A stretch of DNA of 64,000 bases from Anaerolineae bacterium (GCA_034437215.1 DAOTVC010000076.1:27439-91438); one strand, 5' to 3'. Positions 13,401 to 52,990 are shown, numbered from the stretch's first letter. The notes: generated by a model not told the origin, from the sequence alone. Translations and numbers: made by a program.

Positions 13401-16400
13401 GGAGGTGGTTGAAGTGCTTGACGTCCTGCGCGTCGGCGTTGAGGTTGCGCAATTCGACCTCTGCCTGAGCGCTGGCCTGATCGAAGACCCGGGTGACGGT
13501 GGGCCAGCTGGCGAAGCGGCGCGCCATCTCCAGGATCTGCTGCCGGTCGTCGGCGGCGAGGGTGACGAAAGCGACCTCGCCGCTGGTGTGGGGCGCGATC
13601 TCCAGCTCCTGTCCCAGCGCCATGATGGGGTCGAGGGTGGCGCCGGTGGTCCCGGTCAGCCAGCCCTCGCTCTCCAGCGCACGGGGGTTCTTCTGGGCGC
13701 GCCCGCGCCCCAGGAAGCGCTCCCGGTCGCTCTCGTGGGCGCCCGTCAGCTCGATGCCCTCCTCGGCGACGAGCAGGTGGGCGACGTAGAAGGGCGGCTC
13801 CTCGGCGGAGCGGGGACGTCGCCAGAAGAGGAGGGCGTTGAGCTCGGGCAGGTAGTCGCTCTCGATGAACATCTTGTTGAAGGTGGGATGGCGCCGGTCG
13901 GTGTTCTGGTCCGCCAGCACCAGCTCCGCGTAACTCGTCAGCCGCAGGCGTCGGGAGTCGCCACTGTGGTTGGTCAGGCTGACCCTGCGGACTTCGGCGT
14001 TGTCCTCCTTGGCGATGGTGATGAGGGTGCGGAGGACGATGTCGTGATCCTGGCGACGCAGCTCCGCCTGATGGGGATAGAAGCGCACCTCCGGCGAGCC
14101 AGCGGTGCGGATAGGCTGGGCACCTGCGGACCAGAGGTGCCCGCGATCCACGTCCTGGACGTAAACCCAGGTGCCCCAGGAGTCGAGGGTGGTATCGGCC
14201 CGCCAGCGGGTCAGCGCCCGGGGCTCTTCGGTCTGCGCCCGCTCGCTCTGGAAGTTGCTGTACCCGCCTCCCGAGCCGGTGACGAGGGTGCCGTAGCGCC
14301 CGTTGGAGAGGTAGTGAACGAGGGGCAGGGGGGTCTGTTCGGAGATGGACCAGGGTTCCAGCTGCACCTCGGGCTCCACCTGACGCACCACTCCGACGTC
14401 CTCCTCGGGGGTCTCCTCCACAGGCGCCTGCTGCGGGATCTGCTCCTGGAGCAGCAGCTCGACGCTCTGCATCCGGGGGTCAGCGTGGAAGGCGTCGACG
14501 ATGACCTGCTCACAGAGGTAGTTGGTGAGCGCGACCATGATCATCCCCTGGTGGTGGGCCATGTAGGTGCGCACGATGGCGCGCTCCTGCCCCAACGGCA
14601 GACGGGCCTCAGTGTAGTCCACGGCGTCGTAGAAGCCGAAGTGACCCAGAACCTGTCCTGCCCTGAGGCGCTCGATGTTCTCCATGACCTCCTGGGGGTA
14701 GACGGAGAGGGCCAGGAGGGAGGCGTAAGGGGCGATGACGAGATCGTCCCCCAGACCGCGCTTGCGGCCCAACCCCGGGATACCGAAGCCCCGGTACTGG
14801 TAGTTCAGGGCGGCGTCGAAGCGGTAGTAAGCGGATTCGGAGACGCCCCAGGGGACGTCGTTTTCCGCTGCATAGGCCATCTGTCCTTCCACCACCGCCT
14901 CGTCGGTCTGATCCAGAAGGGTATTCTCGTAGTTCCGCAGCCAGAGATCGGGCATGAGGTACTCGAACATGCTGCCGTTCCAGGAGAGGAGGGCCTCTTT
15001 ACCGTCTACCTGCGTGAGGGGGCGGCCCAGGTGGAGCCAGTGGCTCTGCGACACCTCCCCCTTGGCGATGGCGATGAGGCTGGTCGTGCGGGCCTCCGAG
15101 GCCAAAAGGTCGTAGTGGTTCCCGTCGAGATCCTCGACGTCCACCCGGTAGCCGAGGTAGAAGACCTTCCGCTGGTCGTCGTAGAGGAAGCCGAACTCCA
15201 TCGCCTGGGCCAGCTCCTCGGCCCGGTTGCTCAGGTCCTGTAACCCGATGAGGAGGGAACCGGCGGCGATGCGGGCCGACTCGAGGGCACGCCGAAGATC
15301 CTCGCACCACCGCAGACCCGCCTCGTCTCCTTGCTCCTGCAACAGCTCACAAAGAGCCTCCGACTGCGCTTCGGCCCTGCGGCAGCGGTCCGAGATCATC
15401 TCGAGCGTGGGGGCCGGGGCCAGGGCCTCCTTGAGCCCCTGCCAGCGCTCGCCGACGGCGGAGTCCGCAGGGGCCTCCACCAGGCTCTCGGGCGGCTCCT
15501 GCAGCATGACCAGCCAGGGTAGCAGGAGGTCCATCTCCTGCTGCATGTGGCGCAGGTGATCATGGATACGCTCCGCCCAGAGACGGAAGTCCCGGATGAG
15601 CACGGTGTCGAGGGTGCCGGCTCCCTTTTGACTCAACGTTCTGATCCGCTGATCGAGGGTCACGCCGCTCTCTGTAAGCAACCGTCGCAGCAGGAGACCC
15701 CGGCGCTCGGGCTTCTCCTGAGTTTCCCTCAGGGTCTCTTGGATCTCCTGAATCTGTGTGGTGATATCCTCCACCGCCGGCTGCAGCTCCTCCGCCTCTA
15801 CCTCCTCCACGAGCTCCAGAAGGACGCCGAGGGTATCGCTCAACCCCCGCCAGCGCTCGTCGTGCAGCACGGATTGTCCTCCCAGGGCACGGAAGCGCTC
15901 CTTGAGAACGATGAGACAGGCCGCCATGTTGCCGCTGTCCACGGTGGAGACGTAGCGCGGTGTGAGCGTGCTCAGGTCCCGGGTGTCATACCAGTTCAGC
16001 AGATGGCCCCTGTACTTCTCCATCCGGTCGATGGTCTCCAGGGTGGAGCGGATGCGTACCGTCAGCTCCAGGAAGCCGATGTAGCCTATCTCGTAGGCCC
16101 CCAGGGTGGAGAGGAGGAGGAGTCCGATGTTGGTGGGGGAGGTGCGATGGGCGACCAGCCCCCGAGGCTGCTCCTGAAAGTGATCGGGGGGGAGCCAGTG
16201 ATCCTCGGGCCCTACGAAGCGCTCGAAGTAGAGCCACGTGCGGCGGGCCAGGCGGCGCAGCTCGGCGCGCTCCTCCGCGGTCAAGGGCTTGCGCTCCCTC
16301 TCGATGGGCTGGCTGACCAGGTAGGCCACGTAGGGGGAAGCCGTCCATAGCATGACCAGCGGTAGGGCGACGAAGAGGGCCGGCGGGTGGACGACGGCGG

Positions 16401-19035
16401 TCACGATGCCCAGCACGACGGCGAGCAGCGCTCCCCCTCCCATCCACTGCCAGAGCACCGCGATCTTGGACTCCCGCCCGAAGAGGCGCACGGTGTGGGC
16501 TGCCGTCGTCCACTGCAGGAGGCGTTTGTGGCTGATGAAGAGGCGCACCAGGGTCGTGCCGATGGCGTCCGCCATCAGAAGGGTCTCGTAGGGCAGGAAG
16601 GCGAGAAAGAGCAACCAACGCCCCGTCTCCCTGCGTACTGCTTCGAGCGGGGTGTTGGTGCCGCCGTCCTGCAGACGACGCAGGATCTCCGCGACGGCGG
16701 CCACGACCAGGGGGACCGCCGACATCAGCAGGGTAAAGAGGGTCCAGAGGAAGGCGGAGCCGGGCAGCCAGACCCAGCCGGCAAAGAGCAGGGCCAGAAG
16801 CGCCGGCGTGCGCAGACTCCGGCGCAAATTGTCGACGATCTTCCAGCGGTCGATGAGGGAGAAGGGGTTGGGCAGACGCTCCCCTGCGGCTTCCGGCACC
16901 CGTGGGGCGAGCCAGGGCAGCAGCTGCCAGTCGCCCCGTACCCAGCGGTGTTTGCGTTGGGTGTAGGCAATATAGCTGGGGGGATAGCTCTCGTAGAGGA
17001 TGATGTCGGTCACCAGCCCTGCCCGCCCGTGGATTCCCTCGAAGAGGTCGTGGCTCAGCAGCGCGTTCTCCGGCACCCAACCCTCGAGACTGCGATAGAA
17101 GGCCTCCAGGTCGTAGATGCCCTTGCCCACGTAGATCCCCTCGCCGAAGAAGTCCTGGTAGACGTCGGAGACGGCGCGGGTGTAGAGATCGAGGCCCGTA
17201 TCGCCGGTGAAGATGCGGGTGAAGAGGGTCTGGTGAGCGTCGGTGGGCTTGACCTCCGTCCGCGGCTGGAGGATGGTGTAGCCGGCGATGACCTGCCCCG
17301 TCTCCGGATCGAAGAGGGGGCGATTGAGCGGGTGGGCCAGCGTGCCCACGAGGCGCTGAGCAGCCTCACGGGGTAGGATGGTATCGGCGTCGAGGGTGAT
17401 GACGTAGCGGATGTCGGGGAGCGCCGCGAAGTTACCGACCTGCGTGCTGTACGAGGTCTCACCGCGGTCGAGCAGCAGGCGGTTGAACTCCTCAATCTTG
17501 CCCCGCTTGCGCTCCCAGCCCATCCAGACCCCTTCCTGGGGGTTCCACTGCCGCTTGCGGTGCAACAGGTAGAAGAGGCCGCGGTTCTGGGGATCGTACT
17601 GGCGGTTGAGGGCGCGAATGCCCTCGATGGCCTGCTCGAGGAGGGTCTCGTCCTCGGGCATCTCCTCCTCGGGCGCGTCGCTGAAATCGGTGAGCAGGGC
17701 GAAGCGCAGCCGGGGATCGCTGTTGTTCAGGTAGTGGAGCTCGATCTGCTGCAGCAGGAAGTCCACCTCGTCGCTCGTCAGCAGTGCGGGGATCACCACG
17801 AAGGCAGGATGGGCTTCCGGTATCCCTTCGCTGAAGTCCATCTTGGGCAGGTCGCTGGGGGAGGTGAGGTGAGTGATGGTGAAGTTGATCAGGTTGACCG
17901 CGACCATGGAGGCGGGGATGAGGGTGAGGAGCACCGTGGCGACGAGCTCGAAGGGGGTAGCGCCTGCATTCCAGGCGAAGAGGGCCAGCCCCAGGACGAC
18001 GAGAAGGGTCAGCAGGACGATGCTCGTCAGGTAGACGAAGGTGGGATGGTCGAGGGCCCAGGCGCCCCACCGCTTCCCGAGCGGGGGATGGTAGTCGAGT
18101 GCGGCTTCCAGGGCCGGTCGGCCCCCGCCGATGAGGTAGTATCCGACGTGCCGGACGCGTTCGCCCTTGGGATCCGTCTCCTCCGCTTCCTCTGCCAGCC
18201 GCACGACCTCCTGTGCGGCGCTCTCCTCACTATATTCGGAGAAGCGGGCGAGGGTCTCCACCTCCTTGCGGTAGTGGTCACGGGTGTCGAAGTCCATGCG
18301 GGCGTAGATGCCGGTCGGGTCCTGGCGCAGGGTCACCTCGACGCGGCTCACCTTTTCGAAGAAGCTCTTCCAGTCGTAGGCCTCGAGGGCGCGTAGGCTG
18401 CGGATCGCGTTCCCGACCACGACCTCGGGAGGTGCCGTCGGCTCCTCCTCCCCGAAAGCACACCCAAGGCTGGGGATGGGTGCGGCGACCTCGTCGAGCG
18501 CCACGCCTGCTTCGTCGACGACGGTGTACGTTAGCAGTTCAATGATGCTCAGGCGGAGCATGATGGGGATGGCCCAGACCTCCCCCATGGTGAGAGGGCG
18601 CACCTCCTGGTAGGCGTTGGTGAAGCGCTGCACCCGATCGACGTCGACGGCCCCAGTGGCGCAGCTGACGAGGGCCCGGGCGATGGCGTAGACACGGGGA
18701 TAGTCCTGTAGCTCGCCGTCGTCCAGCTTGGGCAGCCGGCGGTAGTAGCCTTCCGGGAGATTCTCCCGGATGCCCCGCATGGTCTGTTGAATGACGTAGA
18801 AGTTGTCGAGCAGCCACTCACCTACACCGGAAAGGGTGCCCTCCTCCTCGGAGAGCTGCACGAAGTAGTTGTAGGCCTCGCGCAGTGCCTCCCGGTAAGC
18901 AGGCAGGGCCTCCAGGGGTGAAGTCCGGGTGCCGGGACGCCGCGTCGCGCTCTGCTTCTCGGCGAGTCGCCGACCGCGGGTTGCGATTCGCTCTTCGGTA
19001 TGGGTGGGGGCTGTGTGATCCGCAGTGTCTGCCAT
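10444..19035 (-). CDS. Cyclic beta-1,2-glucan synthase (NdvB/ChvB/Cgs family): 2863 aa, with an N-terminal GT84-like glycosyltransferase plus TM region and a C-terminal GH94 phosphorylase-like domain.
   Basis: Size and collinear motifs typical of Cgs proteins (LLHRKRQWNPQEGVWMGWERKRGKIEEFNRLL; GH94-like C-terminal half). GGAGAAGGG RBS. Confidence 0.85.
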   Translation of the reverse strand: MADTADHTAPTHTEERIATRGRRLAEKQSATRRPGTRTSPLEALPAYREALREAYNYFVQLSEEEGTLSGVGEWLLDNFYVIQQTMRGIRENLPEGYYRRLPKLDDGELQDYPRVYAIARALVSCATGAVDVDRVQRFTNAYQEVRPLTMGEVWAIPIMLRLSIIELLTYTVVDEAGVALDEVAAPIPSLGCAFGEEEPTAPPEVVVGNAIRSLRALEAYDWKSFFEKVSRVEVTLRQDPTGIYARMDFDTRDHYRKEVETLARFSEYSEESAAQEVVRLAEEAEETDPKGERVRHVGYYLIGGGRPALEAALDYHPPLGKRWGAWALDHPTFVYLTSIVLLTLLVVLGLALFAWNAGATPFELVATVLLTLIPASMVAVNLINFTITHLTSPSDLPKMDFSEGIPEAHPAFVVIPALLTSDEVDFLLQQIELHYLNNSDPRLRFALLTDFSDAPEEEMPEDETLLEQAIEGIRALNRQYDPQNRGLFYLLHRKRQWNPQEGVWMGWERKRGKIEEFNRLLLDRGETSYSTQVGNFAALPDIRYVITLDADTILPREAAQRLVGTLAHPLNRPLFDPETGQVIAGYTILQPRTEVKPTDAHQTLFTRIFTGDTGLDLYTRAVSDVYQDFFGEGIYVGKGIYDLEAFYRSLEGWVPENALLSHDLFEGIHGRAGLVTDIILYESYPPSYIAYTQRKHRWVRGDWQLLPWLAPRVPEAAGERLPNPFSLIDRWKIVDNLRRSLRTPALLALLFAGWVWLPGSAFLWTLFTLLMSAVPLVVAAVAEILRRLQDGGTNTPLEAVRRETGRWLLFLAFLPYETLLMADAIGTTLVRLFISHKRLLQWTTAAHTVRLFGRESKIAVLWQWMGGGALLAVVLGIVTAVVHPPALFVALPLVMLWTASPYVAYLVSQPIERERKPLTAEERAELRRLARRTWLYFERFVGPEDHWLPPDHFQEQPRGLVAHRTSPTNIGLLLLSTLGAYEIGYIGFLELTVRIRSTLETIDRMEKYRGHLLNWYDTRDLSTLTPRYVSTVDSGNMAACLIVLKERFRALGGQSVLHDERWRGLSDTLGVLLELVEEVEAEELQPAVEDITTQIQEIQETLRETQEKPERRGLLLRRLLTESGVTLDQRIRTLSQKGAGTLDTVLIRDFRLWAERIHDHLRHMQQEMDLLLPWLVMLQEPPESLVEAPADSAVGERWQGLKEALAPAPTLEMISDRCRRAEAQSEALCELLQEQGDEAGLRWCEDLRRALESARIAAGSLLIGLQDLSNRAEELAQAMEFGFLYDDQRKVFYLGYRVDVEDLDGNHYDLLASEARTTSLIAIAKGEVSQSHWLHLGRPLTQVDGKEALLSWNGSMFEYLMPDLWLRNYENTLLDQTDEAVVEGQMAYAAENDVPWGVSESAYYRFDAALNYQYRGFGIPGLGRKRGLGDDLVIAPYASLLALSVYPQEVMENIERLRAGQVLGHFGFYDAVDYTEARLPLGQERAIVRTYMAHHQGMIMVALTNYLCEQVIVDAFHADPRMQSVELLLQEQIPQQAPVEETPEEDVGVVRQVEPEVQLEPWSISEQTPLPLVHYLSNGRYGTLVTGSGGGYSNFQSERAQTEEPRALTRWRADTTLDSWGTWVYVQDVDRGHLWSAGAQPIRTAGSPEVRFYPHQAELRRQDHDIVLRTLITIAKEDNAEVRRVSLTNHSGDSRRLRLTSYAELVLADQNTDRRHPTFNKMFIESDYLPELNALLFWRRPRSAEEPPFYVAHLLVAEEGIELTGAHESDRERFLGRGRAQKNPRALESEGWLTGTTGATLDPIMALGQELEIAPHTSGEVAFVTLAADDRQQILEMARRFASWPTVTRVFDQASAQAEVELRNLNADAQDVKHFNHLLSALIYPYAALRAAPEILAANERGQSGLWPYAISGDYPLLLVRIGEQEEIPLIRQLLKAHTYWRNRNLKIDLVILNTKDTGYAQELSDQINSLIRQSDSDAWINRRGGIFILRKGQMDRETQILLQTAARVVLDAGAGALEEQLRPLQQRPTYLPSFSPPQPGGYAEEPLPPVERPTDLEFDNGFGGFTAGGKEYAIYLESGSERPEGWTPAPWINVIANPDFGFLVAESGPGFSWALNSGENRLTPWRNDPVSAPPAEALYLRDEETAEVWTPTPLPRGEDAPYLIRHGAGYSIFEHHSHGLEQRLRLFAAPDAPVKIVQLRLHNAWERPRRLTATYYAEWVLATFRDLAQQYIVPDYAGEHDVLLARNPYNAEFAGRVAFLAADRPLHGLTTNRTEFLGRERSLEDPAALSRVGLSGTVRAGFDPCAALQIHIDLQPGETQEVTFFLGQGADREETLALVDRFRQEGAAGETWQAVTDFWEGVRSSITVSTPERSMDLLLPWLLYQALSCRIWGRSALYQSSGAFGFRDQLQDVMSVVHARPEVAREHILRTAAHQFEEGDVLHWWHPPSGRGVRTRISDDLLWLPYVTAEYVETTGDTAVLEEEVPFREGEPLKPEEEERYGHYEITEKSYSLYEHCLRAIAQGTTSGPHGLPLMKAGDWNDGMNRVGIEGEGESVWLGWFLYDILQRFAPLCEARGDADLARDFREQAEVLRETLEATAWDGAWYRRGYYDDGTPLGSSQSEECQIDSLGQSWAVLSGAGSEERVAEALRSVDERLIREDAEIIELFTPPFDETPKDPGYIKGYPPGIRENGGQYTHAALWVVWAFAKRGRGERAAQLFHLLNPINHSLTQERAEAYKVEPYVVAADVYSVPPYVGHGGWTWYTGSSGWMYRLGIEAILGLHREGQSLRMDPRIPGSWPGFSLTYRYGTSRYHIEVDNEAGVEQGVREVRVDGERRDDKRIPLQDDGGQHEVQVVMGEEEA

Positions 19036-20692: not shown

Positions 20693-21910
20693 TCAAGCCC
20701 CGTACTTCCCCAGCCGTCGCGCGTGGGCGAGGGCCAGGGGCATGATCTCGAAGGCCGGGAAGCGCGGTCCCAGACTGCCGGTGACGCACGCTCGCTCGCC
20801 GAACTGCTCCACTCTATCAGGCCGGCAGAACTCCGACCAGAGAAGCACCGGCACGGGGTGCCAGCTGTGATACTTCATCTTGGCGGGCGTCGAGTGATCC
20901 CCTGTCACCACAATCACGTCGGGATGGAGGTCGACGAGGCGGGGTACGAGCGCGTCCGTCTCCTCGATGAGGCTGACTCGGCGGTCGAAGTCGCCGTCCT
21001 CCCCGGCGCTGTCGATCCGCTTCACGTGGACGAAGAAGAAATCGTAGTCGTTCCACTTCTCCTCTAAAAGGTCGAACTCCTCCTCCACGGTGTGGCTGAC
21101 GGGCAGGGCGTCCATTCCGATGAGCTTGGAGACGCCCCGGTACATGGGGTACATGGCGATGGCGGCCGCTTGCAGCCCGAAGACCTCCTGCATGGAGGGC
21201 CATTCGGGCTGCTGGGAGAAGCCGCGCAGCAGTACCATGTTGGCGGGCTTCTCATCGCGCAGGATCTCCCGGACCTGGTCGACGAAGTCGCGCACGATCC
21301 GAGCCGTCTTCTTCGCCTCCGGTGTGGGCAGGGTGGCCTCCGGGCGCACCGGCTCCTCTCCCACCTCCAGGGGATCGGTCTCCGTCACGGCGCTCGAGAG
21401 CTCCGCGCCCCGCAGCACCAGCAGGAAGCGGTACTCCTTGACGGGCTCCATGAAGACCTCCACCTCGGAGATGTCGAGATTACTGCAGACGAGCTCCTCC
21501 AGCTCCTTGTTCTTCTCGGTGGAGATGCGGCCCGCGCGCCGATCGACGACGACGCCCTGCTCGTTAACCGTGCAGAAGTTCCCGCGAGCCGCCACGTCCT
21601 GGGGCTGGAGATCGAAGTCGATGCCCAGCGCCGAGAGGACGCCCCGGCCCACCTGGTAGGTGACGGGGTCGTAGCCGAAGATGCCCAGGTGACCGGGCCC
21701 GCTGCCGGGGGTGACCCCCGTACGCACCGGCTGGTGGAGGCCGCAGATGCCTTCCGCCGCCAGCCGGTCCAGGTTGGGGGTGTGGGCCGCCTCGAGGGCC
21801 GTCTTGCCACCCCTTTCCATGGGTAATCCCCCCAGCCCGTCCATGACCAGCATCACGATCTTGGTGTCTCTGTTTCTCTCGACGAGAGATTTGATGAAGT
21901 TAAGGTCCAT
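20693..21910 (-). CDS. apgM: 2,3-bisphosphoglycerate-independent phosphoglycerate mutase, archaeal type (ApgM).
   Basis: 405 aa collinear with ApgM family proteins (MDLNFIKSL...VTGDHSTP...). AGGAAAGGAGAT RBS. Confidence 0.9.
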   Translation of the reverse strand: MDLNFIKSLVERNRDTKIVMLVMDGLGGLPMERGGKTALEAAHTPNLDRLAAEGICGLHQPVRTGVTPGSGPGHLGIFGYDPVTYQVGRGVLSALGIDFDLQPQDVAARGNFCTVNEQGVVVDRRAGRISTEKNKELEELVCSNLDISEVEVFMEPVKEYRFLLVLRGAELSSAVTETDPLEVGEEPVRPEATLPTPEAKKTARIVRDFVDQVREILRDEKPANMVLLRGFSQQPEWPSMQEVFGLQAAAIAMYPMYRGVSKLIGMDALPVSHTVEEEFDLLEEKWNDYDFFFVHVKRIDSAGEDGDFDRRVSLIEETDALVPRLVDLHPDVIVVTGDHSTPAKMKYHSWHPVPVLLWSEFCRPDRVEQFGERACVTGSLGPRFPAFEIMPLALAHARRLGKYGA

Positions 21911-21947
21911 GCTTGATCTCCTTTCCTGACATGTAGCTTTGTTAACT

Positions 21948-22811
21948 CTACCCACCCTTGATGGAGCCCGCGAGAATACCACGGACGAAGAAGCGCTGCA
22001 GGGAGAAGAAGACGACGAGGGGCAGGGCCATGGAGACGACGGCGGCGGCGGGCAGGAGGTAGGCTTGGGCCCCGAGCGAGTTCACGAGGTTGGCGACGCG
22101 GACGGTGAGCGGGGCGACGCGGGGTGTGCCCCCCAGGTAGATGAGGGCGACGAGCAGGTCGTTCCAGACCCAGAGGAACTGAAAGATGGCCAGGGCCGCC
22201 AGGGAGGGGACGGAGAGGGGGAGGGCCAAGCGTGTGAAGGCGGTGAAGAAGGAGGCGCCGTCGAGATAGGCGGACTCGAAGAGCTCGCTGGGGAGGGAGC
22301 CGAAGAAGTTGCGCAGCAGGTAGACGGCGAAGGGAAGGCCGTAGCCCGTGTGGGCCAGCCAGATCCCCAGGAAGGTCCCGTTGAGGCCCAAGGAGGTGTA
22401 GATGGAGTAGACGGGGACGAAGGTCATCTGCAAGGGGACCACGAGGAGGCCCACGACGAGGGAGAAGAGCAGCCGGCGTCCCGGAAAATCCATCCAGGCG
22501 AAAGCGTAGGCCGCGAAGGCCGCGACGAGGATGGGGATGACGGTGGCCGGGACGGAGATGAAGAGACTGTTGCGGAAGGCGTGGGCCAAACCCTGGGCCT
22601 CCAGCACCGTCTCGTAGTTCTCCAGCGTCCACGTGGTGATGTTGAAGGGATGGGCGAAGATGTTCCACCAGCCGCTCGACCGGATGGCCTGCGGGGGGCG
22701 GAAGGAGTTGAGCAAGACGCCCATGGAGGGCAACATCCAGATAAGGGCAATGGTGATGACTACGACGTGGAGGGGAATTCTACCCAGGAGCTTGCGCATT
22801 TTGTCACTCAT
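21948..22811 (-). CDS. Carbohydrate ABC transporter permease (MalG/UgpE-like).
   Basis: 6-TM permease with an EAA-like loop. Overlaps the upstream permease by 4 nt. Confidence 0.85.
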   Translation of the reverse strand: MSDKMRKLLGRIPLHVVVITIALIWMLPSMGVLLNSFRPPQAIRSSGWWNIFAHPFNITTWTLENYETVLEAQGLAHAFRNSLFISVPATVIPILVAAFAAYAFAWMDFPGRRLLFSLVVGLLVVPLQMTFVPVYSIYTSLGLNGTFLGIWLAHTGYGLPFAVYLLRNFFGSLPSELFESAYLDGASFFTAFTRLALPLSVPSLAALAIFQFLWVWNDLLVALIYLGGTPRVAPLTVRVANLVNSLGAQAYLLPAAAVVSMALPLVVFFSLQRFFVRGILAGSIKGG

Positions 22812-23668
22812 CGTATAGCCTCCTGTTCCTGGAACCGCCGGATGTTGACAATCATGACGGGGACGATAGCCAGCAGCAAGACGACGGCCACCGCGGCAGC
22901 GCGTCCGTCGTTGCGGTTGATGTAGAGCTGGCGGTACATCTCGTAGGCGATGACGTTGGTGTCGTAGCGCGCACCCGTCATGACGTAGATGAGATCGAAG
23001 ATTTTCAGCACCATGATGATCAGCGTGGTGGTGACGACGGCGATGGTGGAGGCGATCATGGGCACCGTCACCCTCCAGAAGATCTGGAAGCCGCTGGCGC
23101 CGTCCACCTTGGCCGCGTCGATGATCTCGTCAGGGATGCCCTTGATGGCAGCCGAGAGGATGACCATGGCGAAGCCCGTCCACATCCAGATACCCGTGGT
23201 GATGAGGGCGTAGGTGGCGATATTGCTGTTGACCAACCAGCCTACGGGTTCGAAGTTCGGGAAGAGGGAGGTGAGAACGGCGTTGAGCAGGCCGACATTG
23301 GGACGATAGTCGTAGACGTACTGCCAGATCACCCCGGCTCCTACGAAGGAGATGGCCTGCGGGAGGAAGATGATGGACTTCGCTACCGACTCGTAAGGCA
23401 CCTTGTCCACCAGCACGGCGATGATAAGGCCGGCGACGACGGTCAAAGAGGTGAAGAAGATGAGCCAGAGAAGATTGTTCTTGAAGGCGCTCAACATGGG
23501 GGCGCTGGTAAAGGCGAAGACGTAGTTCTCAAACCCCACGAAGGTCTCGGAGTTGGGGCCGTAGAAGCTCAACCGGATGGTGGCGATGGTGGGGTAGATC
23601 AGGTAAAAGGCGAGAATCAGTAAGGTCGGTCCGATGTAGAACCAGGAACGCAGCCCAGCCTTCCGCAT
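22808..23668 (-). CDS. Carbohydrate ABC transporter permease (MalF/UgpA-like).
   Basis: Permease topology and motifs. Confidence 0.85.
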   Translation of the reverse strand: MRKAGLRSWFYIGPTLLILAFYLIYPTIATIRLSFYGPNSETFVGFENYVFAFTSAPMLSAFKNNLLWLIFFTSLTVVAGLIIAVLVDKVPYESVAKSIIFLPQAISFVGAGVIWQYVYDYRPNVGLLNAVLTSLFPNFEPVGWLVNSNIATYALITTGIWMWTGFAMVILSAAIKGIPDEIIDAAKVDGASGFQIFWRVTVPMIASTIAVVTTTLIIMVLKIFDLIYVMTGARYDTNVIAYEMYRQLYINRNDGRAAAVAVVLLLAIVPVMIVNIRRFQEQEAIR

Positions 23669-23711
23669 TGAAGTGCTCCTTTCTCTGTGTGAATATCAGG
23701 TCTGCTTGCGA

Positions 23712-23756
23712 CGGGATGCGTGTTGCGCCTTTGAGGAGACCGCAACACGCATCCCG
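23712..23756. other. Perfect 16-bp inverted repeat (cgggatgcgtgttgcg ... cgcaacacgcatcccg, 13-nt loop) between the SBP and permease genes; likely intra-operon stem-loop or attenuating terminator.
   Basis: Read directly from the sequence. Confidence 0.7.
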
Positions 23757-23821
23757 GACTTAGGTATGGAGCCGCCGCTGCGGCAGAGAACGCCGTAACG
23801 GCCGGCTCGATTGATCAACGT

Positions 23822-25273
23822 TTAGTAGTTTTCCTCGGCGACGCTCTCGATATTCTGTAGAATGCTGTCCAACTGATCGGGGTTCTCCACGTACTCGAGG
23901 ATGCCGGACCAGAAGGCGTCGTTGACGGCGGACGGCATGAGATCCGAGGCGTCGAAGCGTACGACATCGGCCTCGACGAGAACCTCTGCGGCCTGCTGCG
24001 TCAGTTGATCGGGATAGATCTCCGGAGCGACGTTCCGGTTGGTGGCGATGAAGCCGCCGCGCTCGGCCCAGATGCTCTGGGCGTCATCGGTCGCCAGCCA
24101 GCGCATCAGACAGCGGGCTGCCGGCTCGTCGTTGAAGAGCCCGAAGAGGTCGCCCGCCACGAGGGCCGGTGTGCCGTACTGCTCGTCGATGGGCGGGAAG
24201 GCGAAGTAGTCGAAGTCTTCGATGGGCTGGGCGTCAGGGAACTGGTCCTGGATGAAGCTCTGGATGAAGATGGCCTGGCGGTGCATGTAGCAGCCCGGCG
24301 GTTCCTGTAACATGGGATAGACAGACTCACCGAAGCCGGTAGCCAGCACAGCGGTCGTGCCCCCTTGGACCATATCGCCGTCGGTGGCGACCTGTCCGAA
24401 GATCTCCCAGGCATTGCGTACGGCTTCGTCGGTCCAGGGGATCTCGTGTTGCCACCACTGGTCGTAGACCTCAGGTCCCGCAGTGCGCAACATGATGTCC
24501 TCGATCCAGTCGGTGCCGGGCCAGCCGCTCGCGGCGCCGCTCTCCAGCCCCAGGCACCAGGGCGCGTTGCCGTCGTCGATGATGGTCTGTGAGAGCTCCA
24601 TCATCTCGTCCCAGCTCTCCTCGGGGATCTCGTACCCGGCCTCCTCAAAATTAGGAGGGCTGTACCAGACGAGGCTTTTGATCGCGGCCTTCGTGAAGAT
24701 ACCGTAGAGGCCGCCGTCGAAGGTCGCCAGGTCGATCCAGGTGTCGGCGTAGTCCTCCTGCAGCATCTCCATGTCCATGAAGGTGCTCAGATCCACCAGA
24801 TAGCCCTCATCGGCGTACTGGCGCAGCTGACCGGGGCCGGGCAGACCGGCGATGTCGGGCGGGTTGCCGCCCTCGACGCGCGTGGTCAGCACGGCGTTCA
24901 GGTCACGGGTGCCCTCGTAATCCATCATGGCGCCCGTGGCTTCCTCCCAGGGCGCGACCATGGCCTCGAAACTTTCCAGCTCGTCGCCGCCCCAGACGGC
25001 GAGAACGTTGACCGTCTCGCCGGAGATGTCCTCCTCACAACTGAAGGCCATCTCCTCTTCCATCTCCTCCGTCGGCATGGCCTCTTCCGTCTCCTCGGCC
25101 ATCTCCTCCGTCGGTGTAGGCTCTTCGGTCATCTCTTCTGTGGGCTCTTCTGTCATCTCTTCTGTGGGCTCTTCGGTCATCTGCTCGGTGGGCTCCTCGC
25201 CGTTACAGGCGCTCAGGAGCATGCTCGCCACCAGCAGGACGCTGACGAGAACCCAAAGTGTGCGTTTGAACAT
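23822..25273 (-). CDS. ABC transporter extracellular solute-binding protein (family 1, sugar) with lipoprotein signal and acidic EEPTEEMT repeat linker.
   Basis: Lipobox LLSACNG followed by (EEPTEEMT)n low-complexity linker; SBP_bac_1-like body. Confidence 0.85.
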   Translation of the reverse strand: MFKRTLWVLVSVLLVASMLLSACNGEEPTEQMTEEPTEEMTEEPTEEMTEEPTPTEEMAEETEEAMPTEEMEEEMAFSCEEDISGETVNVLAVWGGDELESFEAMVAPWEEATGAMMDYEGTRDLNAVLTTRVEGGNPPDIAGLPGPGQLRQYADEGYLVDLSTFMDMEMLQEDYADTWIDLATFDGGLYGIFTKAAIKSLVWYSPPNFEEAGYEIPEESWDEMMELSQTIIDDGNAPWCLGLESGAASGWPGTDWIEDIMLRTAGPEVYDQWWQHEIPWTDEAVRNAWEIFGQVATDGDMVQGGTTAVLATGFGESVYPMLQEPPGCYMHRQAIFIQSFIQDQFPDAQPIEDFDYFAFPPIDEQYGTPALVAGDLFGLFNDEPAARCLMRWLATDDAQSIWAERGGFIATNRNVAPEIYPDQLTQQAAEVLVEADVVRFDASDLMPSAVNDAFWSGILEYVENPDQLDSILQNIESVAEENY

Positions 25274-48453: not shown

Positions 48454-48581
48454 GGGGCAAGATAGCTCTCTACCGCTCCGCCACCGCTTCTCACCTGCAG
48501 AGCGCGCAGTTTCTAAGGCGTCGCTTTAATTTTTTCCACTTCCGGGTATACTGCAGGCAGAGCCCCTTTCGGGGCGTCTTT

Positions 48582-48671
48582 TGTTAGGCAGGCAGGTGTT
48601 AGACAGGCAGGGGTTAGGCAGGCAGGTGTTAGACAGGCAGGTGTTAGACAGGCAGGTGTTAGATAAGCAGG
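48582..48671. repeat. 15-bp tandem repeat array, 6 units ((T/G)GTTAG(A/G)CAGGCAGG), ending 5 nt before the start codon of the MazG-like gene.
   Basis: Units at 48582, 48597, 48612, 48627, 48642, 48657; the last unit (tgttagataagcagg) supplies the AGGA RBS. Confidence 0.95.
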
Positions 48672-48676
48672 ATAGG

Positions 48677-48991
48677 ATGACGCTTGACGAGTTGACCGAC
48701 GCGATGAACCGCTTCGTCGAGGCCATGGGCTGGTACCGGCCCGATTCCCCCTTCGTGCAGAGCCCGCGCAACATCGCCATCTCCCTGACGTTGGAGGCCG
48801 GCGAGGTGCTCGAGCACTTCCAGTGGGGGGAGGAGGCCGTTCCGGAGGATCTGGCAGAGGAGCTGGCCGACGTGGCCCTCTACCTGCTTCAGCTGGCCTA
48901 CCTAACCGGCGTGGATCTGGAGGAGGCCATCGTCGACAAGCTGGCGGTGAACTACGAACGCTTTGGGCCGCAGGAAGACACGGCGGCGTGA
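48677..48991 (+). CDS. MazG-like all-alpha nucleoside triphosphate pyrophosphohydrolase (small, single domain).
   Basis: EAGEVLEHF and EELADVALYLLQLA EExxE-type motifs; 104 aa. The alternative TTG start at 48581 would translate the repeats as (QVLDR)n. Confidence 0.7.
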   Translation: MTLDELTDAMNRFVEAMGWYRPDSPFVQSPRNIAISLTLEAGEVLEHFQWGEEAVPEDLAEELADVALYLLQLAYLTGVDLEEAIVDKLAVNYERFGPQEDTAA

Positions 48992-49683
48992 AGACACGGG
49001 AGGCTGCAAGGAAATCCAACGCGACCTGCATCCTGGTAGTCAGCGACGATGTGGCCCCCTCGCTCTTCAGCGACAATCTCAAGAAGTACGTGGGGACCAT
49101 CGACGTGCTGCTCTCCTGTGGGGATCTGTCCTACTCCTACCTGGAGTATCTCGTCACCCAACTGCAGACTCGCTACGCCTACTACGTGCGCGGTAACCAC
49201 GACGGGCCCGAGTACCGGGCCAACAACACGACGCTGGAGGCGCCGGGCGGTTGGGTCGACGTCGACGGCCGGGTGAGGGAGGCCGAGAAGCACAGGCTGC
49301 TCGTCGCCGGACTCGAGGGCTCCATCCGCTACCGTCCCAAGGCGCCCTACCAGTACACGCAGACCGAGATGTGGTGGCGGGTGCAGAAGCTCGCGCTCAA
49401 GTTGCTCTTCAACTACGCCCTCTACGGGCGTTTCCTGGACATCTTCATCGCCCACTCCCCGCCTGCCGGGATCCACGACGGTCCCGACTGGCCCCACCGG
49501 GGCTTTGAGGCTTTTCGGGGTCTGATGAAGCGCTTCCGACCGCGCCTCTTCTTGCACGGTCACAAGCACCGCTACGGGCCCATGCCCTGGCGTACGGAGT
49601 TCGAGGAGACGGAGGTGGTGAACGTGCACCCCTTTCGCGTGATTCATTGGTACGAGGATGAGATCAAGTATGGACGCCTCTAG
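48988..49683 (+). CDS. Calcineurin-like metallophosphoesterase.
   Basis: GDLSY...GNHD...GHKH phosphoesterase motifs. GTG start overlapping the MazG-like stop (GTGA) is inferred; the ATG-less alternative is uncertain. Confidence 0.65.
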   Translation: MKTREAARKSNATCILVVSDDVAPSLFSDNLKKYVGTIDVLLSCGDLSYSYLEYLVTQLQTRYAYYVRGNHDGPEYRANNTTLEAPGGWVDVDGRVREAEKHRLLVAGLEGSIRYRPKAPYQYTQTEMWWRVQKLALKLLFNYALYGRFLDIFIAHSPPAGIHDGPDWPHRGFEAFRGLMKRFRPRLFLHGHKHRYGPMPWRTEFEETEVVNVHPFRVIHWYEDEIKYGRL

Positions 49684-51484
49684 TGCCAGCGCCGCCAAAC
49701 AGAGTTTCGACCGTGCCCGGTTGAAGGCCTTCTGGAACGCACTGGTCTCGACCCTGACGGGCCGTTCCAACCAGCTTCTGGCCTGGCAGGACGTGCGGGA
49801 TCAGCTCCATATCGGCGGGCAGTTCTACCGGGGCATCCAGTCGGTGCCCCTCGAGAGGATCGTCGGCAGCGTGAATCGCTACCGGGACTTCGACCGGGCC
49901 TTTCTGCCCCGCCAGACCCACACGGAGGCCCGGTGGCGGAACATCAGCAGCGCCTACTACCAGGAGAAGCACCTGCCTCCCGTCCAGCTCTACAAGGTGG
50001 GGGAGGCCTACTTCGTCCTCGACGGCAACCATCGCGTCTCCGTGGCTCGCGAGCAGGGACGGGCGTACATCGACGCCGAGGTCACGGAGGTGGAGGCGCC
50101 CGTCTCTGTGAGCGCCGACCTCGACGCCCGCGACCTGCAGATCAAGGGGGAGTACGCCGAGTTTCTGCGGCGTACGCGCCTCGACGAGCTGCGCCCCGGG
50201 CAGGGGATCGAGTTCACCATCGCCGGCGGGTACCAGCAGCTGTTGGAGCACATCGCCGTCCACCGCTACTTCATGGGGGGGGATCTGGGGCGCTTCGTGC
50301 CGGAGGAGGAGGCGATCACCCACTGGTACGATCACGTCTACCGACCTCTTGTGCAGACCGTCCGCCGGCAGGAGATTCTGAAGGAGTTTCCCAACCGCAC
50401 GGAGGCCGACCTCTACCTCTGGGTGATGGAGCATCTGCACTTTTTGAGAGAGAGCGGGGGACAGATCACACGGGCGCGCGCCGCCAAGCACTTTGCCGCT
50501 CACTACAATGCCAACCTGCTGAAGCGCGCTCTGAGCATCGTCGGTGGGCTCTGGAGCTCCATCGAGGACGTGGGGGAGGCGGAGGCCGCCGTCGACTTCC
50601 TCGTGGAGACCCGGCTCGACGAGCTGCGCCCCGATCACGGCATCCGGGTGAGCCGACCCGGCGGGTACCAGCGGTTGTTGGAGCACATCGCCGTCCACCG
50701 CCACTTCATGGGGCTGGAGCAGCAGCGCTTCATCGCCAAGCAGGAGGCCATCCTCGACTGGTACGACCACATCTACCACCCCATCGTACGTCTGGTACGC
50801 GAACAGGGCCTGACCCGAGAGCTCTCCCACCTCACCGACACGGAGATCTACCTCTGGATCATGGAGCACCTGCAGTTCTTGCAGGAGCAGGGCGCCCACC
50901 TGAGCCACGAGGAGGCGGTGGAGGATTTCATCCGCCACTACACCCTGCGGCCGCTGAAAGAGGTTCTGGACATGGTCCAGGATCTCCTGGAGGTGGGGAC
51001 GGGGCCCGCCGGTGCCACCACCTATCAGAACTTCCTCAAGTACACGCAGCTGGACCGTCTGCGCCCGCAGCACCGGATCTCCACGACCATCATCAGCGGT
51101 TACCGGCGGCTCCTGGAGCATATCGCGGCTCACCGGTACTTTATGGGTATCGATGAGCAGCGCTCCATCTCCGAGGAGGAGGCGGTGATGGACTGGTACG
51201 ATCAGGTCTACCTGTCCGTCGTCCAGGTGATTCGCGACCACCGTCTGCTGCAGACCTTCCCCAAGCGCACGGAGGCCGATCTCTACCTCTGGTTCATGGA
51301 GCACCGGCACACCCTGGAGGAGCGGGGGGAGATGCTGGGGCGGTTGAACCGGGTGCAGGAGCTGACCGACGAGGAGGTCGACGAGCCGCTGGAGCGCGCC
51401 GTGGATGCCGTTCAACAGCTCCTCGAAAAGACGAGCTCCAAGGATGGGCAGCCGGGAGAGGCTGAGGCGAGCGCCAGCGCCTGA
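49670..51484 (+). CDS. ParB/Srx-like N-terminal domain protein with three tandem ~150-aa DUF4032-like repeats.
   Basis: N-terminal YKVGEAYFVLDGNHRVSVAREQG (ParB-like). Three repeats each carry RLDELRP...GYQ(Q/R)LLEHIA(V/A)HR(Y/H)FMG...WYD(H/Q)(V/I)Y...TE(A/T)(D/E)(L/I)YLW(V/I/F)MEH. The DUF4032 naming is from memory of the motif and is inference. Confidence 0.7.
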   Translation: MDASSASAAKQSFDRARLKAFWNALVSTLTGRSNQLLAWQDVRDQLHIGGQFYRGIQSVPLERIVGSVNRYRDFDRAFLPRQTHTEARWRNISSAYYQEKHLPPVQLYKVGEAYFVLDGNHRVSVAREQGRAYIDAEVTEVEAPVSVSADLDARDLQIKGEYAEFLRRTRLDELRPGQGIEFTIAGGYQQLLEHIAVHRYFMGGDLGRFVPEEEAITHWYDHVYRPLVQTVRRQEILKEFPNRTEADLYLWVMEHLHFLRESGGQITRARAAKHFAAHYNANLLKRALSIVGGLWSSIEDVGEAEAAVDFLVETRLDELRPDHGIRVSRPGGYQRLLEHIAVHRHFMGLEQQRFIAKQEAILDWYDHIYHPIVRLVREQGLTRELSHLTDTEIYLWIMEHLQFLQEQGAHLSHEEAVEDFIRHYTLRPLKEVLDMVQDLLEVGTGPAGATTYQNFLKYTQLDRLRPQHRISTTIISGYRRLLEHIAAHRYFMGIDEQRSISEEEAVMDWYDQVYLSVVQVIRDHRLLQTFPKRTEADLYLWFMEHRHTLEERGEMLGRLNRVQELTDEEVDEPLERAVDAVQQLLEKTSSKDGQPGEAEASASA

Positions 51485-51535
51485 CCCGACTTGTGGTCAC
51501 GCGGCTTTGACTTATTATGACAGAAGTGAAATTAA

Positions 51536-52990
<1,455 letters not shown>

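Follow-up and report, generated by a model that had tools for sequence, protein, structure and literature searches.

A conserved pair of a metallophosphoesterase and a predicted ParB/sulfiredoxin-fold protein with DUF4032-like modules, and its possible link to storage carbohydrates

Three overlapping genes in an Anaerolineae bacterium

We examined a three-gene operon within 64,000 nucleotides (nt) of DNA from an Anaerolineae bacterium (the whole stretch that was analysed, hereafter the window). Three overlapping open reading frames (ORFs) span positions 48677-51484 on the plus strand, and we call them g1, g2, and g3. As described in an initial annotation, which was made from the sequence alone, the stop codon of g1 and the start codon of g2 overlap as GTGA, and g2 and g3 overlap by 14 nt. 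The boundaries of g2 and g3 are the same in a public gene prediction for an identical contig. (There is a second possible ATG for g3, at 49658, but it is a poorer fit to the N-termini of homologues and to Shine-Dalgarno spacing.) Overall, this is a translationally coupled three-gene operon on a Chloroflexota chromosome. The genes, and the parts of the g3 protein, are as follows.

48677-48991, plus strand: g1, predicted MazG-like all-alpha nucleoside triphosphate (NTP) pyrophosphohydrolase, 104 amino acids; ATG start, TGA stop
48988-49683, plus strand: g2, calcineurin-like metallophosphoesterase (MPE), 231 amino acids; GTG start at 48988
49670-51484, plus strand: g3, 604 amino acids; predicted ParB/sulfiredoxin (ParB/Srx)-fold N-domain and three DUF4032-like helical modules; ATG start
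49670-50119, plus strand: g3 residues 1-150, N-terminal helix and predicted ParB/Srx-fold domain (from Foldseek on the AlphaFold2 model and an invariant motif)
50126-50569, plus strand: helical module 1, residues 153-300; DUF4032 score of 20.1 bits
50570-51010, plus strand: helical module 2, residues 301-447; 50% identical to module 1; DUF4032 score of 23.8 bits on its own
51011-51439, plus strand: helical module 3, residues 448-590; 51% identical to module 1; DUF4032 score of 17.7 bits

The initial annotation had called the N-terminal domain of g3 ParB/Srx-like, and every search with hidden Markov models (HMMs) failed to recover this. Residues 1-177 of g3 have no match in Pfam at E ≤ 10, PF02195 (the ParB model) included, and neither do 11 diverse N-domains from the family. 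Searches of NCBIfam and of the sequences in the Protein Data Bank (PDB), with the single sequence and with two profiles, gave no significant match to ParB. There are fainter signals: precomputed PF02195 matches for some relatives (P0085, P0409, and others), matches to ParB-like families in PHROG at 0.004-0.04, and a sub-significant HMM alignment to ParB from M. xanthus (E = 1.2) that sets the DGNHR of g3 on the GERR of ParB.

The predicted structure does support the call. In the AlphaFold2 model of g3, the mean predicted local distance difference test (pLDDT) score is 85, and it is above 90 over residues 40-260. Comparing this model to PDB structures with Foldseek gave Noc (7ol9 and 7nfu), ParB (7bnk), Srx, SbnI, and PadC, with probabilities of 0.97-1.0. 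The best local fits to the N-domain are among the SbnI/SerK/sulfiredoxin proteins. Srx structures have template modelling scores (TMt) of 0.57-0.70, with the highest for Srx from A. thaliana (6ky4; root-mean-square deviation (rmsd) of 2.9 over 87 columns), and SbnI (5ujd) fits with an rmsd of 2.3 Å over 87 columns, at 23% identity.

The N-domain also has the expected motif. The P motif of g3 is D118-G-N-H-R122-x-S124 (GxxR, or Box II), and G119-N-H-R122 does not vary among 91 homologues or between phyla. Other conserved positions lie in G66-S..R70..F74..F78.P80..W89, and the residues that are invariant across phyla are G66, F74, F78, P80, W89, D118, G119, H121, R122, and S124. ParB-fold proteins are versatile NTP binders, and mutating the arginine of GxxR abolishes their NTP binding (PMC12704722). 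Together, the predicted fold and the motif support a ParB/Srx fold for the N-domain.

We compared g3 to better-known proteins with this fold. Like the ParB-CTPase and ParB-Srx fusions that were surveyed recently (Kaljevic et al., PNAS 2025; PMC12704722), g3 has the predicted fold and an intact GxxR, and it is an orphan without a ParA partner that is joined to a lineage-specific domain. Unlike the surveyed proteins, it is missed by PF02195, its Box II is GNHR instead of GERR, and it has no helix-turn-helix (HTH) or C-terminal dimerisation domain. Pfam has no match in g3 for either of those domains, and no parA is adjacent in the window or in the related loci, so the canonical features of ParB are missing. 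The GCHR motif of sulfiredoxin is of the same G-x-H-R type, but in the g3 family the motif is G-N/H-H-R, and there is no catalytic cysteine. SbnI also has a helical C-terminal domain. Unlike SbnI and SerK, g3 is not found in the context of cysteine or siderophore synthesis.

Segments that are remotely similar to the N-domain occur in two large phage proteins. In one (L095, 4899-6860), a DG[NH]HR ParB-like segment is joined to a region with what appears, by eye, to be a KxDG ligase-like motif. In the other (L097, 2832-5312), the segment lies at the C-terminus of an 826-residue protein, and the neighbouring gene looks like a tail fibre by eye.

The rest of g3 is a triplicated module. Repeats of about 147 amino acids are roughly 50% identical to each other, and their pairwise local alignment scores are 299-351, as compared to 24-29 for an N-domain control. 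Across the whole protein, Pfam's DUF4032 (PF13224) matches with E = 1.7e-11 and 44.7 bits (cut-off, 23.8), and the best-scoring stretch is module 2. The three repeats of about 150 amino acids and the motif in the initial annotation were thus reproduced by alignment. Only positions 78-161 of the model's 163 are matched, once per repeat, which corresponds to its C-terminal half, so "DUF4032-like" is a safe label. Pfam may place DUF4032 alongside sugar kinases of the Kdo/WaaP type, but our proposal does not draw on this.

When residues 148-296 were modelled on their own with AlphaFold2, they gave an all-helical structure (pLDDT of 87.8; predicted template modelling score of 0.80). The initial annotation had suggested a structure search of the repeat domain, and none of the folds in PDB or BFVD matched the module significantly. 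In particular, the module did not match any HTH or ParB DNA-binding domain. The only positions that are invariant across phyla are F165, L171, W219, and P226. We considered whether the module could be a metal-binding helical bundle (using E-H-x3-H-R, WYD, and DLYLW), but the histidines are not kept in Actinomycetota or Cetobacterium, so this is not a universal feature. After module 3, there is an acidic tail, and the pLDDT is below 50 beyond residue 588.

The assignments for g2 and g1 were simpler, and in both cases the initial annotation held up. g2 is similar to the Metallophos family (PF00149; E = 1.9e-8, 35.4 bits; cut-off, 21.5), and motifs II-V of the calcineurin-like phosphoesterases are intact. 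We found 1358 homologues, all of about 200-235 amino acids. In 18 of the homologues, motifs II-V are invariant (G44-D45, G68-N-H-D71, H155, and H189-G-H-x-H193), and so is an additional GIHD at residues 160-163.

g1 is above the cut-off for two Pfam models, MazG-like (PF12643; E = 1e-8, 35.7 bits; cut-off, 27) and MazG (PF03819; E = 2e-5, 25 bits; cut-off, 22). Its matches in PDB are an archaeal pyrophosphatase (4qgp; 3.9e-9), dCTP pyrophosphatase 1 (DCTPP1)/RS21-C6 (1.4e-8), and MazZ (2.7e-4), and it matches a pyrophosphatase in PHROG (3.8e-14). The acidic metal-binding residues (ExxE...ExxD) are present as EAGE (residues 41-44) and EELAD (residues 62-66), and these align with DCTPP1 and 4qgp. 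The source records name it "NTP pyrophosphatase (non-canonical NTP hydrolase)". We predict that g1 is a MazG-family NTP pyrophosphatase. With its all-alpha, MazG-like fold and acidic metal motifs, g1 resembles DCTPP1/RS21-C6 and the small PF12643 enzymes, but it differs from DCTPP1/RS21-C6 in that it sits in an operon with an MPE/ParB-like pair, and only in one sub-clade.

A gene pair shared by several phyla

We then asked how widespread these genes are and which of them stay together. A word-index search found at least 2906 matches to g3, a profile for the helical module found 1120 clusters (at 50% identity), and at least 586 of the species representatives in GTDB encode a relative of g3. To compare gene order, we used 80 species-level loci from Chloroflexota (76 with enough upstream DNA) and a set of 176 non-redundant loci, of which 18 lack upstream DNA and 158 are assessable. 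Among the assessable GTDB species loci from Chloroflexota, 58 of 76 have an MPE gene immediately upstream and in the same orientation. Among the assessable non-redundant loci, which are from Chloroflexota, Actinomycetota, and Fusobacteriota, the MPE gene is directly upstream in 111 of 158.

MazG is much less widespread. It is present in just 8 of the 80 Chloroflexota loci, and these fall in one part of the neighbour-joining tree, with the window and its nearest relatives. The initial annotation had proposed a three-gene unit, and the trio does recur in related genomes (L002, L004, L011, L015, L023, L027, L034, L059, L070, L091, and L094), so the co-location is not a coincidence of the window; but the unit that is found across phyla is the g2-g3 pair. 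This pair is the conserved core, and MazG is an accessory that was acquired in one sub-lineage. At one of the trio loci (L002, 4187-5041), a gene for a PF04439 (aminoglycoside-type) nucleotidyltransferase overlaps the MazG gene by 4 nt, which makes a four-gene operon.

The distribution of MazG bears on a house-cleaning role, which the initial annotation had suggested. Here, non-canonical (d)NTPs would be hydrolysed first by MazG and then by the MPE, and g3 would help by binding NTPs. The resemblance of g1 to DCTPP1/RS21-C6 and MazZ would fit, and all three folds are related to nucleotides. However, MazG is absent from about 90% of the loci that have the pair, and a house-cleaning role does not explain the helical repeats, the fusions to universal-stress-protein (Usp) or GH13 domains, or the sugar operons described below. 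We found no specific support for this role, and we consider it improbable.

The number of helical modules varies. Most family members have one (281-343 amino acids), fewer have two (416-486 amino acids), and three modules, as in the window, are rare. At three loci (L014, L017, and L021), a second family gene of about 580 codons is convergent with, and directly downstream of, the copy that is linked to an MPE. In a metagenome-assembled genome of Longilinea (L086, 5278-6909), the MPE and the ParB-like protein form a single ORF of 543 amino acids: the stop codon of the MPE gene is missing, and an internal AAGGAGG and ATG are kept. We saw this read-through fusion only once, and it might stem from misassembly.

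Outside of Chloroflexota, a tblastn search of plasmids and chromids identified the MPE/g3 pair in Tsukamurella and in Cetobacterium, with MPE orthologues that are 38% and 32% identical to g2. A homologue search that started from the Tsukamurella protein found the family in Tsukamurella, Gordonia, Rhodococcus (including R. opacus PD630), Williamsia, and Actinophytocola. The MPE gene and the ParB-like gene overlap in all of the genomes that we examined from Rhodococcus, Gordonia, Tsukamurella, and Actinophytocola. (Examples are at L098, 4968-5834; L103, 7001-7867; and L105, 7001-7858; a gene with a SUFU domain and corA are syntenic.) The pair, again with overlapping genes, is present in Cetobacterium and in low-GC relatives from metagenomes (L109-L113) as well.

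The actinobacterial g3-like proteins are about 285 amino acids long, and they are annotated as "chromosome partitioning protein ParB" or "ParB N-terminal domain-containing protein". Because they have no HTH domain and no ParA neighbour, the ParB naming is probably a systematic misannotation.

Carbohydrate genes near the family and a proposed function

Several lines of evidence connect the g3 family to alpha-glucans and sugar uptake. First, in one family member (P0274), a GH13 domain of 620 amino acids is joined to a ParB-like N-domain and a single helical module. The GH13 domain is similar to the maltodextrin glycosyltransferase (MTase) of T. maritima (1gju; 3.7e-85) and, more weakly, to GlgE (1.7e-9). 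The gene is preceded by an MPE gene, with a 4-nt overlap, and is flanked by ROK and GH57 genes.

This fusion is reminiscent of TreS-Pep2, a trehalose synthase-maltokinase fusion of the GlgE pathway in which a GH13 enzyme and a domain for NTP-dependent phosphotransfer are fused or encoded together. P0274 likewise combines a GH13 alpha-glucan enzyme with a predicted NTP-dependent domain. The kinase fold of Pep2 is protein-kinase-like, unlike the ParB/Srx fold predicted for g3, and the likeness, with any kinase role that it might suggest for g3, is an analogy.

Second, the family often lies in or near sugar operons. In Cetobacterium, the gene order is a sugar ATP-binding cassette (ABC) permease, TrmB, a hypothetical gene, glycogen phosphorylase, MPE, and the g3-like gene. 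In Tsukamurella, it is a solute-binding protein, two permeases, a MalK/UgpC-type ATPase, MPE, and the g3-like gene, alongside a LacI gene and a divergent GH13 gene. In Gordonia, Rhodococcus, and Actinophytocola, a MalK-type sugar ABC transporter is 0.4-4.9 kb from the pair. In a high-GC clade from metagenomes that lacks the MPE, the g3-like gene begins 19-112 nt after a gene for a MalK-type ATPase (ABC_tran + OB_MalK + TOBE). This clade has LacI and permease genes upstream and, in 8 loci, a GH15/trehalase-like gene downstream. Within Chloroflexota, GH13 genes adjoin four of the loci (L064, where it is directly upstream, L063, L031, and L044), and sugar ABC genes adjoin two others (L080 and L087).

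Third, carbohydrate genes are concentrated close to the family. About 20 of the 176 non-redundant loci have a carbohydrate gene within 500 nt, as compared to 8 loci for the entire flanks from 0.5 to 8 kb. This suggests that the clustering reflects function rather than chance. (The window itself has a four-gene run on the minus strand, at 20693-25273, that ends in an SBP_bac_1 solute-binding protein, at 23822-25273, and resembles a sugar-type ABC transporter operon. It is about 25 kb from the operon and non-adjacent, so we did not treat it as context.)

We therefore propose that the pair is an NTP-dependent phosphotransfer/phosphoesterase module that acts on storage carbohydrates. We infer every step of the mechanism, and we would give the proposal a probability of roughly 35%. 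g3 would bind an NTP in its ParB/Srx pocket, through the P motif, and would then act either as a phosphotransferase (like SerK, SbnI, and Srx, which have the ParB/Srx fold) or as a switch gated by the NTP. It would act on an alpha-glucoside or alpha-glucan (trehalose, maltose/maltodextrin, or glycogen), or on the enzymes or transporters that handle one. The helical modules, which are rich in aromatic residues, may bind the substrate or a partner, and their copy number could tune valency. g2 would hydrolyse the resulting phosphoester, which would give a write/erase cycle on an intermediate of storage-carbohydrate metabolism. Where it is present, g1 may trim or shape the supply of NTPs.

An extension of this proposal to the whole family is more tentative still. 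Family members would be a hitherto unrecognised group of NTP-dependent carbohydrate phosphotransferases, or else NTP-gated regulators of MalK-type transporters or alpha-glucan enzymes. The MPE, as their dedicated partner, would complete a write/erase phosphate switch in the metabolism of trehalose, maltodextrin, or glycogen in at least three phyla, and the helical module would be a new fold for binding a carbohydrate or a partner.

There are a number of caveats to the carbohydrate proposal, and all of them weigh against it. Motif I of g2 is S18-D19-x-[V/I/A]: the aspartate is kept, but the histidine of DxH is absent throughout the family, so the metal site is atypical. (Actinobacterial and Cetobacterium orthologues also have a motif I without the histidine; the invariant GIHD might compensate.) Despite the similar fold, our searches found no sequence match between g3 and SerK or SbnI, and D118, which is invariant in the g3 family, is no more than a candidate counterpart of their catalytic residues. 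The His-rich EHIxxHR motif of the module is not kept beyond Chloroflexota. As for the gene context, a few clades dominate, so that there are only about 6-7 independent lineages with carbohydrate genes, and the counts have no phylogenetic correction. The window and most of the Chloroflexota loci have no adjacent carbohydrate gene (the window has pepA, lexA, proS, and moeA instead). In Actinomycetota, the adjacency to sugar ABC genes may partly be inherited synteny, because such transporters are abundant there. Finally, in a large paralogous clade, 1-3 modules are joined to Usp domains in tandem, and no MPE gene is adjacent. These Usp fusions fit nucleotide sensing at least as well as they fit carbohydrate chemistry. 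(Usp-fusion loci include L008, 5001-7166; L010, 136-4821, with two tandem genes; L074; L075; L079; L081; and L085.)

The Usp-fused clade leads to another explanation, in which g3 senses nucleotide signals or the energy state, g2 is an MPPED2/Icc-type phosphodiesterase for cyclic or other nucleotides, and g1 degrades an alarmone or NTP, with a stress response as the output. The nearest solved relative of g2 by sequence is MPPED2 (profile E = 2.4e-3), and the g2 family is called "Icc-related phosphoesterase" in the source records. Like MPPED2 and other class III (Icc-type) enzymes, g2 has a calcineurin-like fold with GD, GNHD, H, and GHxH motifs and an HxPPxGxxD stretch. That the paralogues swap the MPE partner for fused nucleotide-binding domains would also make sense, as would the matches of g1 to NTP pyrophosphatase families and the versatility of ParB-fold proteins in binding NTPs (PMC12704722).

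However, the similarity to MPPED2 is confined to the generic motifs of the C-terminal half, and g2 differs from MPPED2 in having a motif I without histidine (SDxV), in belonging to a family of about 220 amino acids, and in being paired with g3. Also, there is no conserved gene for a cyclase, GGDEF, HD-GYP, RelA/SpoT, or effector nearby in the loci that we compared, and the GH13 fusion and the placement in sugar-transporter and trehalase operons would be unexplained. We view sensing or signalling as unlikely, although it is the alternative that we take most seriously. The initial annotation's idea of second-messenger turnover is close to it and gained no specific support.

Another alternative is that g3 is a ParB-like DNA-binding NTP switch or transcriptional regulator, in the manner of KorB, VirB, and DndB, or of SbnI in its regulatory role. 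Its modules would bind DNA, g3 would regulate its neighbours, and g2 would be a nuclease or phosphatase. The LacI and TrmB regulators and the sugar operons at several loci would be possible targets, and the annotation of actinobacterial members as chromosome partitioning proteins points the same way. Also, the Foldseek alignments to ParB and Noc reach into the first module (230-250 columns). But these long alignments have an rmsd of 15-20 Å and a template modelling score of about 0.3, and by itself the module does not resemble any HTH or ParB DNA-binding domain. Besides the lack of a Pfam HTH match or a ParA neighbour, there is no parS-like repeat that is conserved across loci, and the 15-nt tandem upstream of the operon (see below) is not conserved. 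A fusion to GH13 would be unusual for a DNA-binding regulator. This explanation is less likely than nucleotide signalling.

We also considered whether the pair might heal RNA or DNA ends, as a kinase with an MPE phosphatase (as in Pnkp). We set this aside, since no ligase or Hen1 context was seen.

Leader, flanking genes, and wider meaning

Upstream of g1 in the window, we identified three features:

48547-48552, plus strand: TATACT, a -10-like hexamer read from the sequence, 5' of the operon
48562-48585, plus strand: short GC hairpin GCCCCTTTCGGGGC and then a run of T, a terminator-like site between the -10-like box and g1
48582-48671, plus strand: six tandem 15-nt units TGTTAGACAGGCAGG (Tandem Repeats Finder: period of 15, 6.0 copies, 90% matches, score of 145)

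The hexamer and hairpin are partly conserved. Two close relatives (L091 and L092) keep the sequence around TATACT, ccacttccgggTATACT, and L094 has TATACT itself. A consensus scan of the leader did not call a full sigma-70 promoter. The hairpin is kept in L091 and L092 as GCCCCTTCCGGGGC followed by TTTTT, and L094 has an analogous hairpin without the T-run. In the relatives, as at L091 (740-775) and L094 (2478-2506), a GC hairpin follows TATACT within about 10 nt. It could serve as a stem-loop in the 5' untranslated region, work as an attenuator, or provide pepA with a second terminator.

The tandem repeat had been described as an iteron leader in the initial annotation. The array is statistically real (6 matches to the unit were observed, and 0.06 are expected by chance), but it is specific to the strain. 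L091 and L092, whose g3 proteins are 89% identical to the window's, have exactly one unit each, the predicted RNA fold of the repeat is not unusual (z = -1.33), and Rfam has no match. We therefore rejected both conserved iterons and a structured leader RNA. Instead, the array is a recent strain-level expansion (a variable-number repeat) of sequence just 5' of the ribosome-binding site. A short-read contig from the same strain (L001) breaks inside of it.

The operon is flanked by housekeeping genes. Its upstream neighbours encode a DUF3048 protein, a spermidine-synthase-like membrane protein, LexA, and PepA (M17), and downstream are ProRS (proS), MoeA, tRNA-Thr, and uridine kinase (udk). The operon region is GC-rich, like the remainder of the window. 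(Elsewhere in the window, at 10444-19035, there is a minus-strand ORF of 2863 amino acids whose GC content at third codon positions is 0.89.)

Just 69 nt (51485-51553) separate g3 from proS, and a scan for terminators found no terminator-like site in this gap. In L002 and L094, too, the operon is followed by proS, and in L004 proS is about 1.4 kb downstream with two genes in between. It is possible, then, that transcription of the operon reads through into proS. We do not consider proS to be a member of the unit: it is downstream in just 9 of the 80 loci, which is lineage synteny.

These neighbours also speak to the suggestion, in the initial annotation, of an NTP-depletion system that defends against phages. 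Some defence and counter-defence systems do contain MazG and ParB-like domains, and g2 has a partial match to the PADLOC candidate PDC-S10 (5.5e-9), which covers only positions 131-197 of the 223 in the profile. However, neither g1 nor g3 has any match in PADLOC. The order pepA-operon-proS is shared by the window and L094, and the family has been inherited across whole phyla. Among 2.9 million viral contigs, we found just three remote matches, all to the N-domain, and the six plasmid or chromid records with a relative are all typed as non-mobilizable. The operon does not appear to be in a defence island or a mobile element, and with lexA, pepA, proS, moeA, and udk around it, a defence role is very improbable.

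As for what was known before, our literature searches found nothing on DUF4032, PF13224, or the MPE/ParB-like gene pair. The 2025 survey of ParB-CTPase-fold fusions was seeded with PF02195 (PMC12704722), and it lists no DUF4032-like fusion, no MPE partner, and no fusion to Usp or GH13. A Pfam-based survey would be expected to miss the g3 family, because Pfam's ParB model is blind to it. What is new here is a protein with a modelled ParB/Srx fold, and with predicted NTP binding, that has an unreported fusion partner and a phosphoesterase partner.

Recent work sees the ParB fold as a general switch that binds NTPs, many of whose fusions are still unexplored, and this family is widespread across Chloroflexota, Actinomycetota, and Fusobacteriota. 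Thousands of its actinobacterial proteins are labelled as chromosome partitioning proteins, probably wrongly. Some members are in culturable actinomycetes, and the MPE partner, together with the repeated placement near genes for trehalose, maltodextrin, or glycogen, leads to a concrete hypothesis that can be tested in tractable strains of Rhodococcus or Gordonia. If the hypothesis is correct, then the pair would represent a new class of enzyme or regulator in storage-carbohydrate metabolism and a function for the ParB fold outside of DNA biology, and a widespread misannotation would be corrected.

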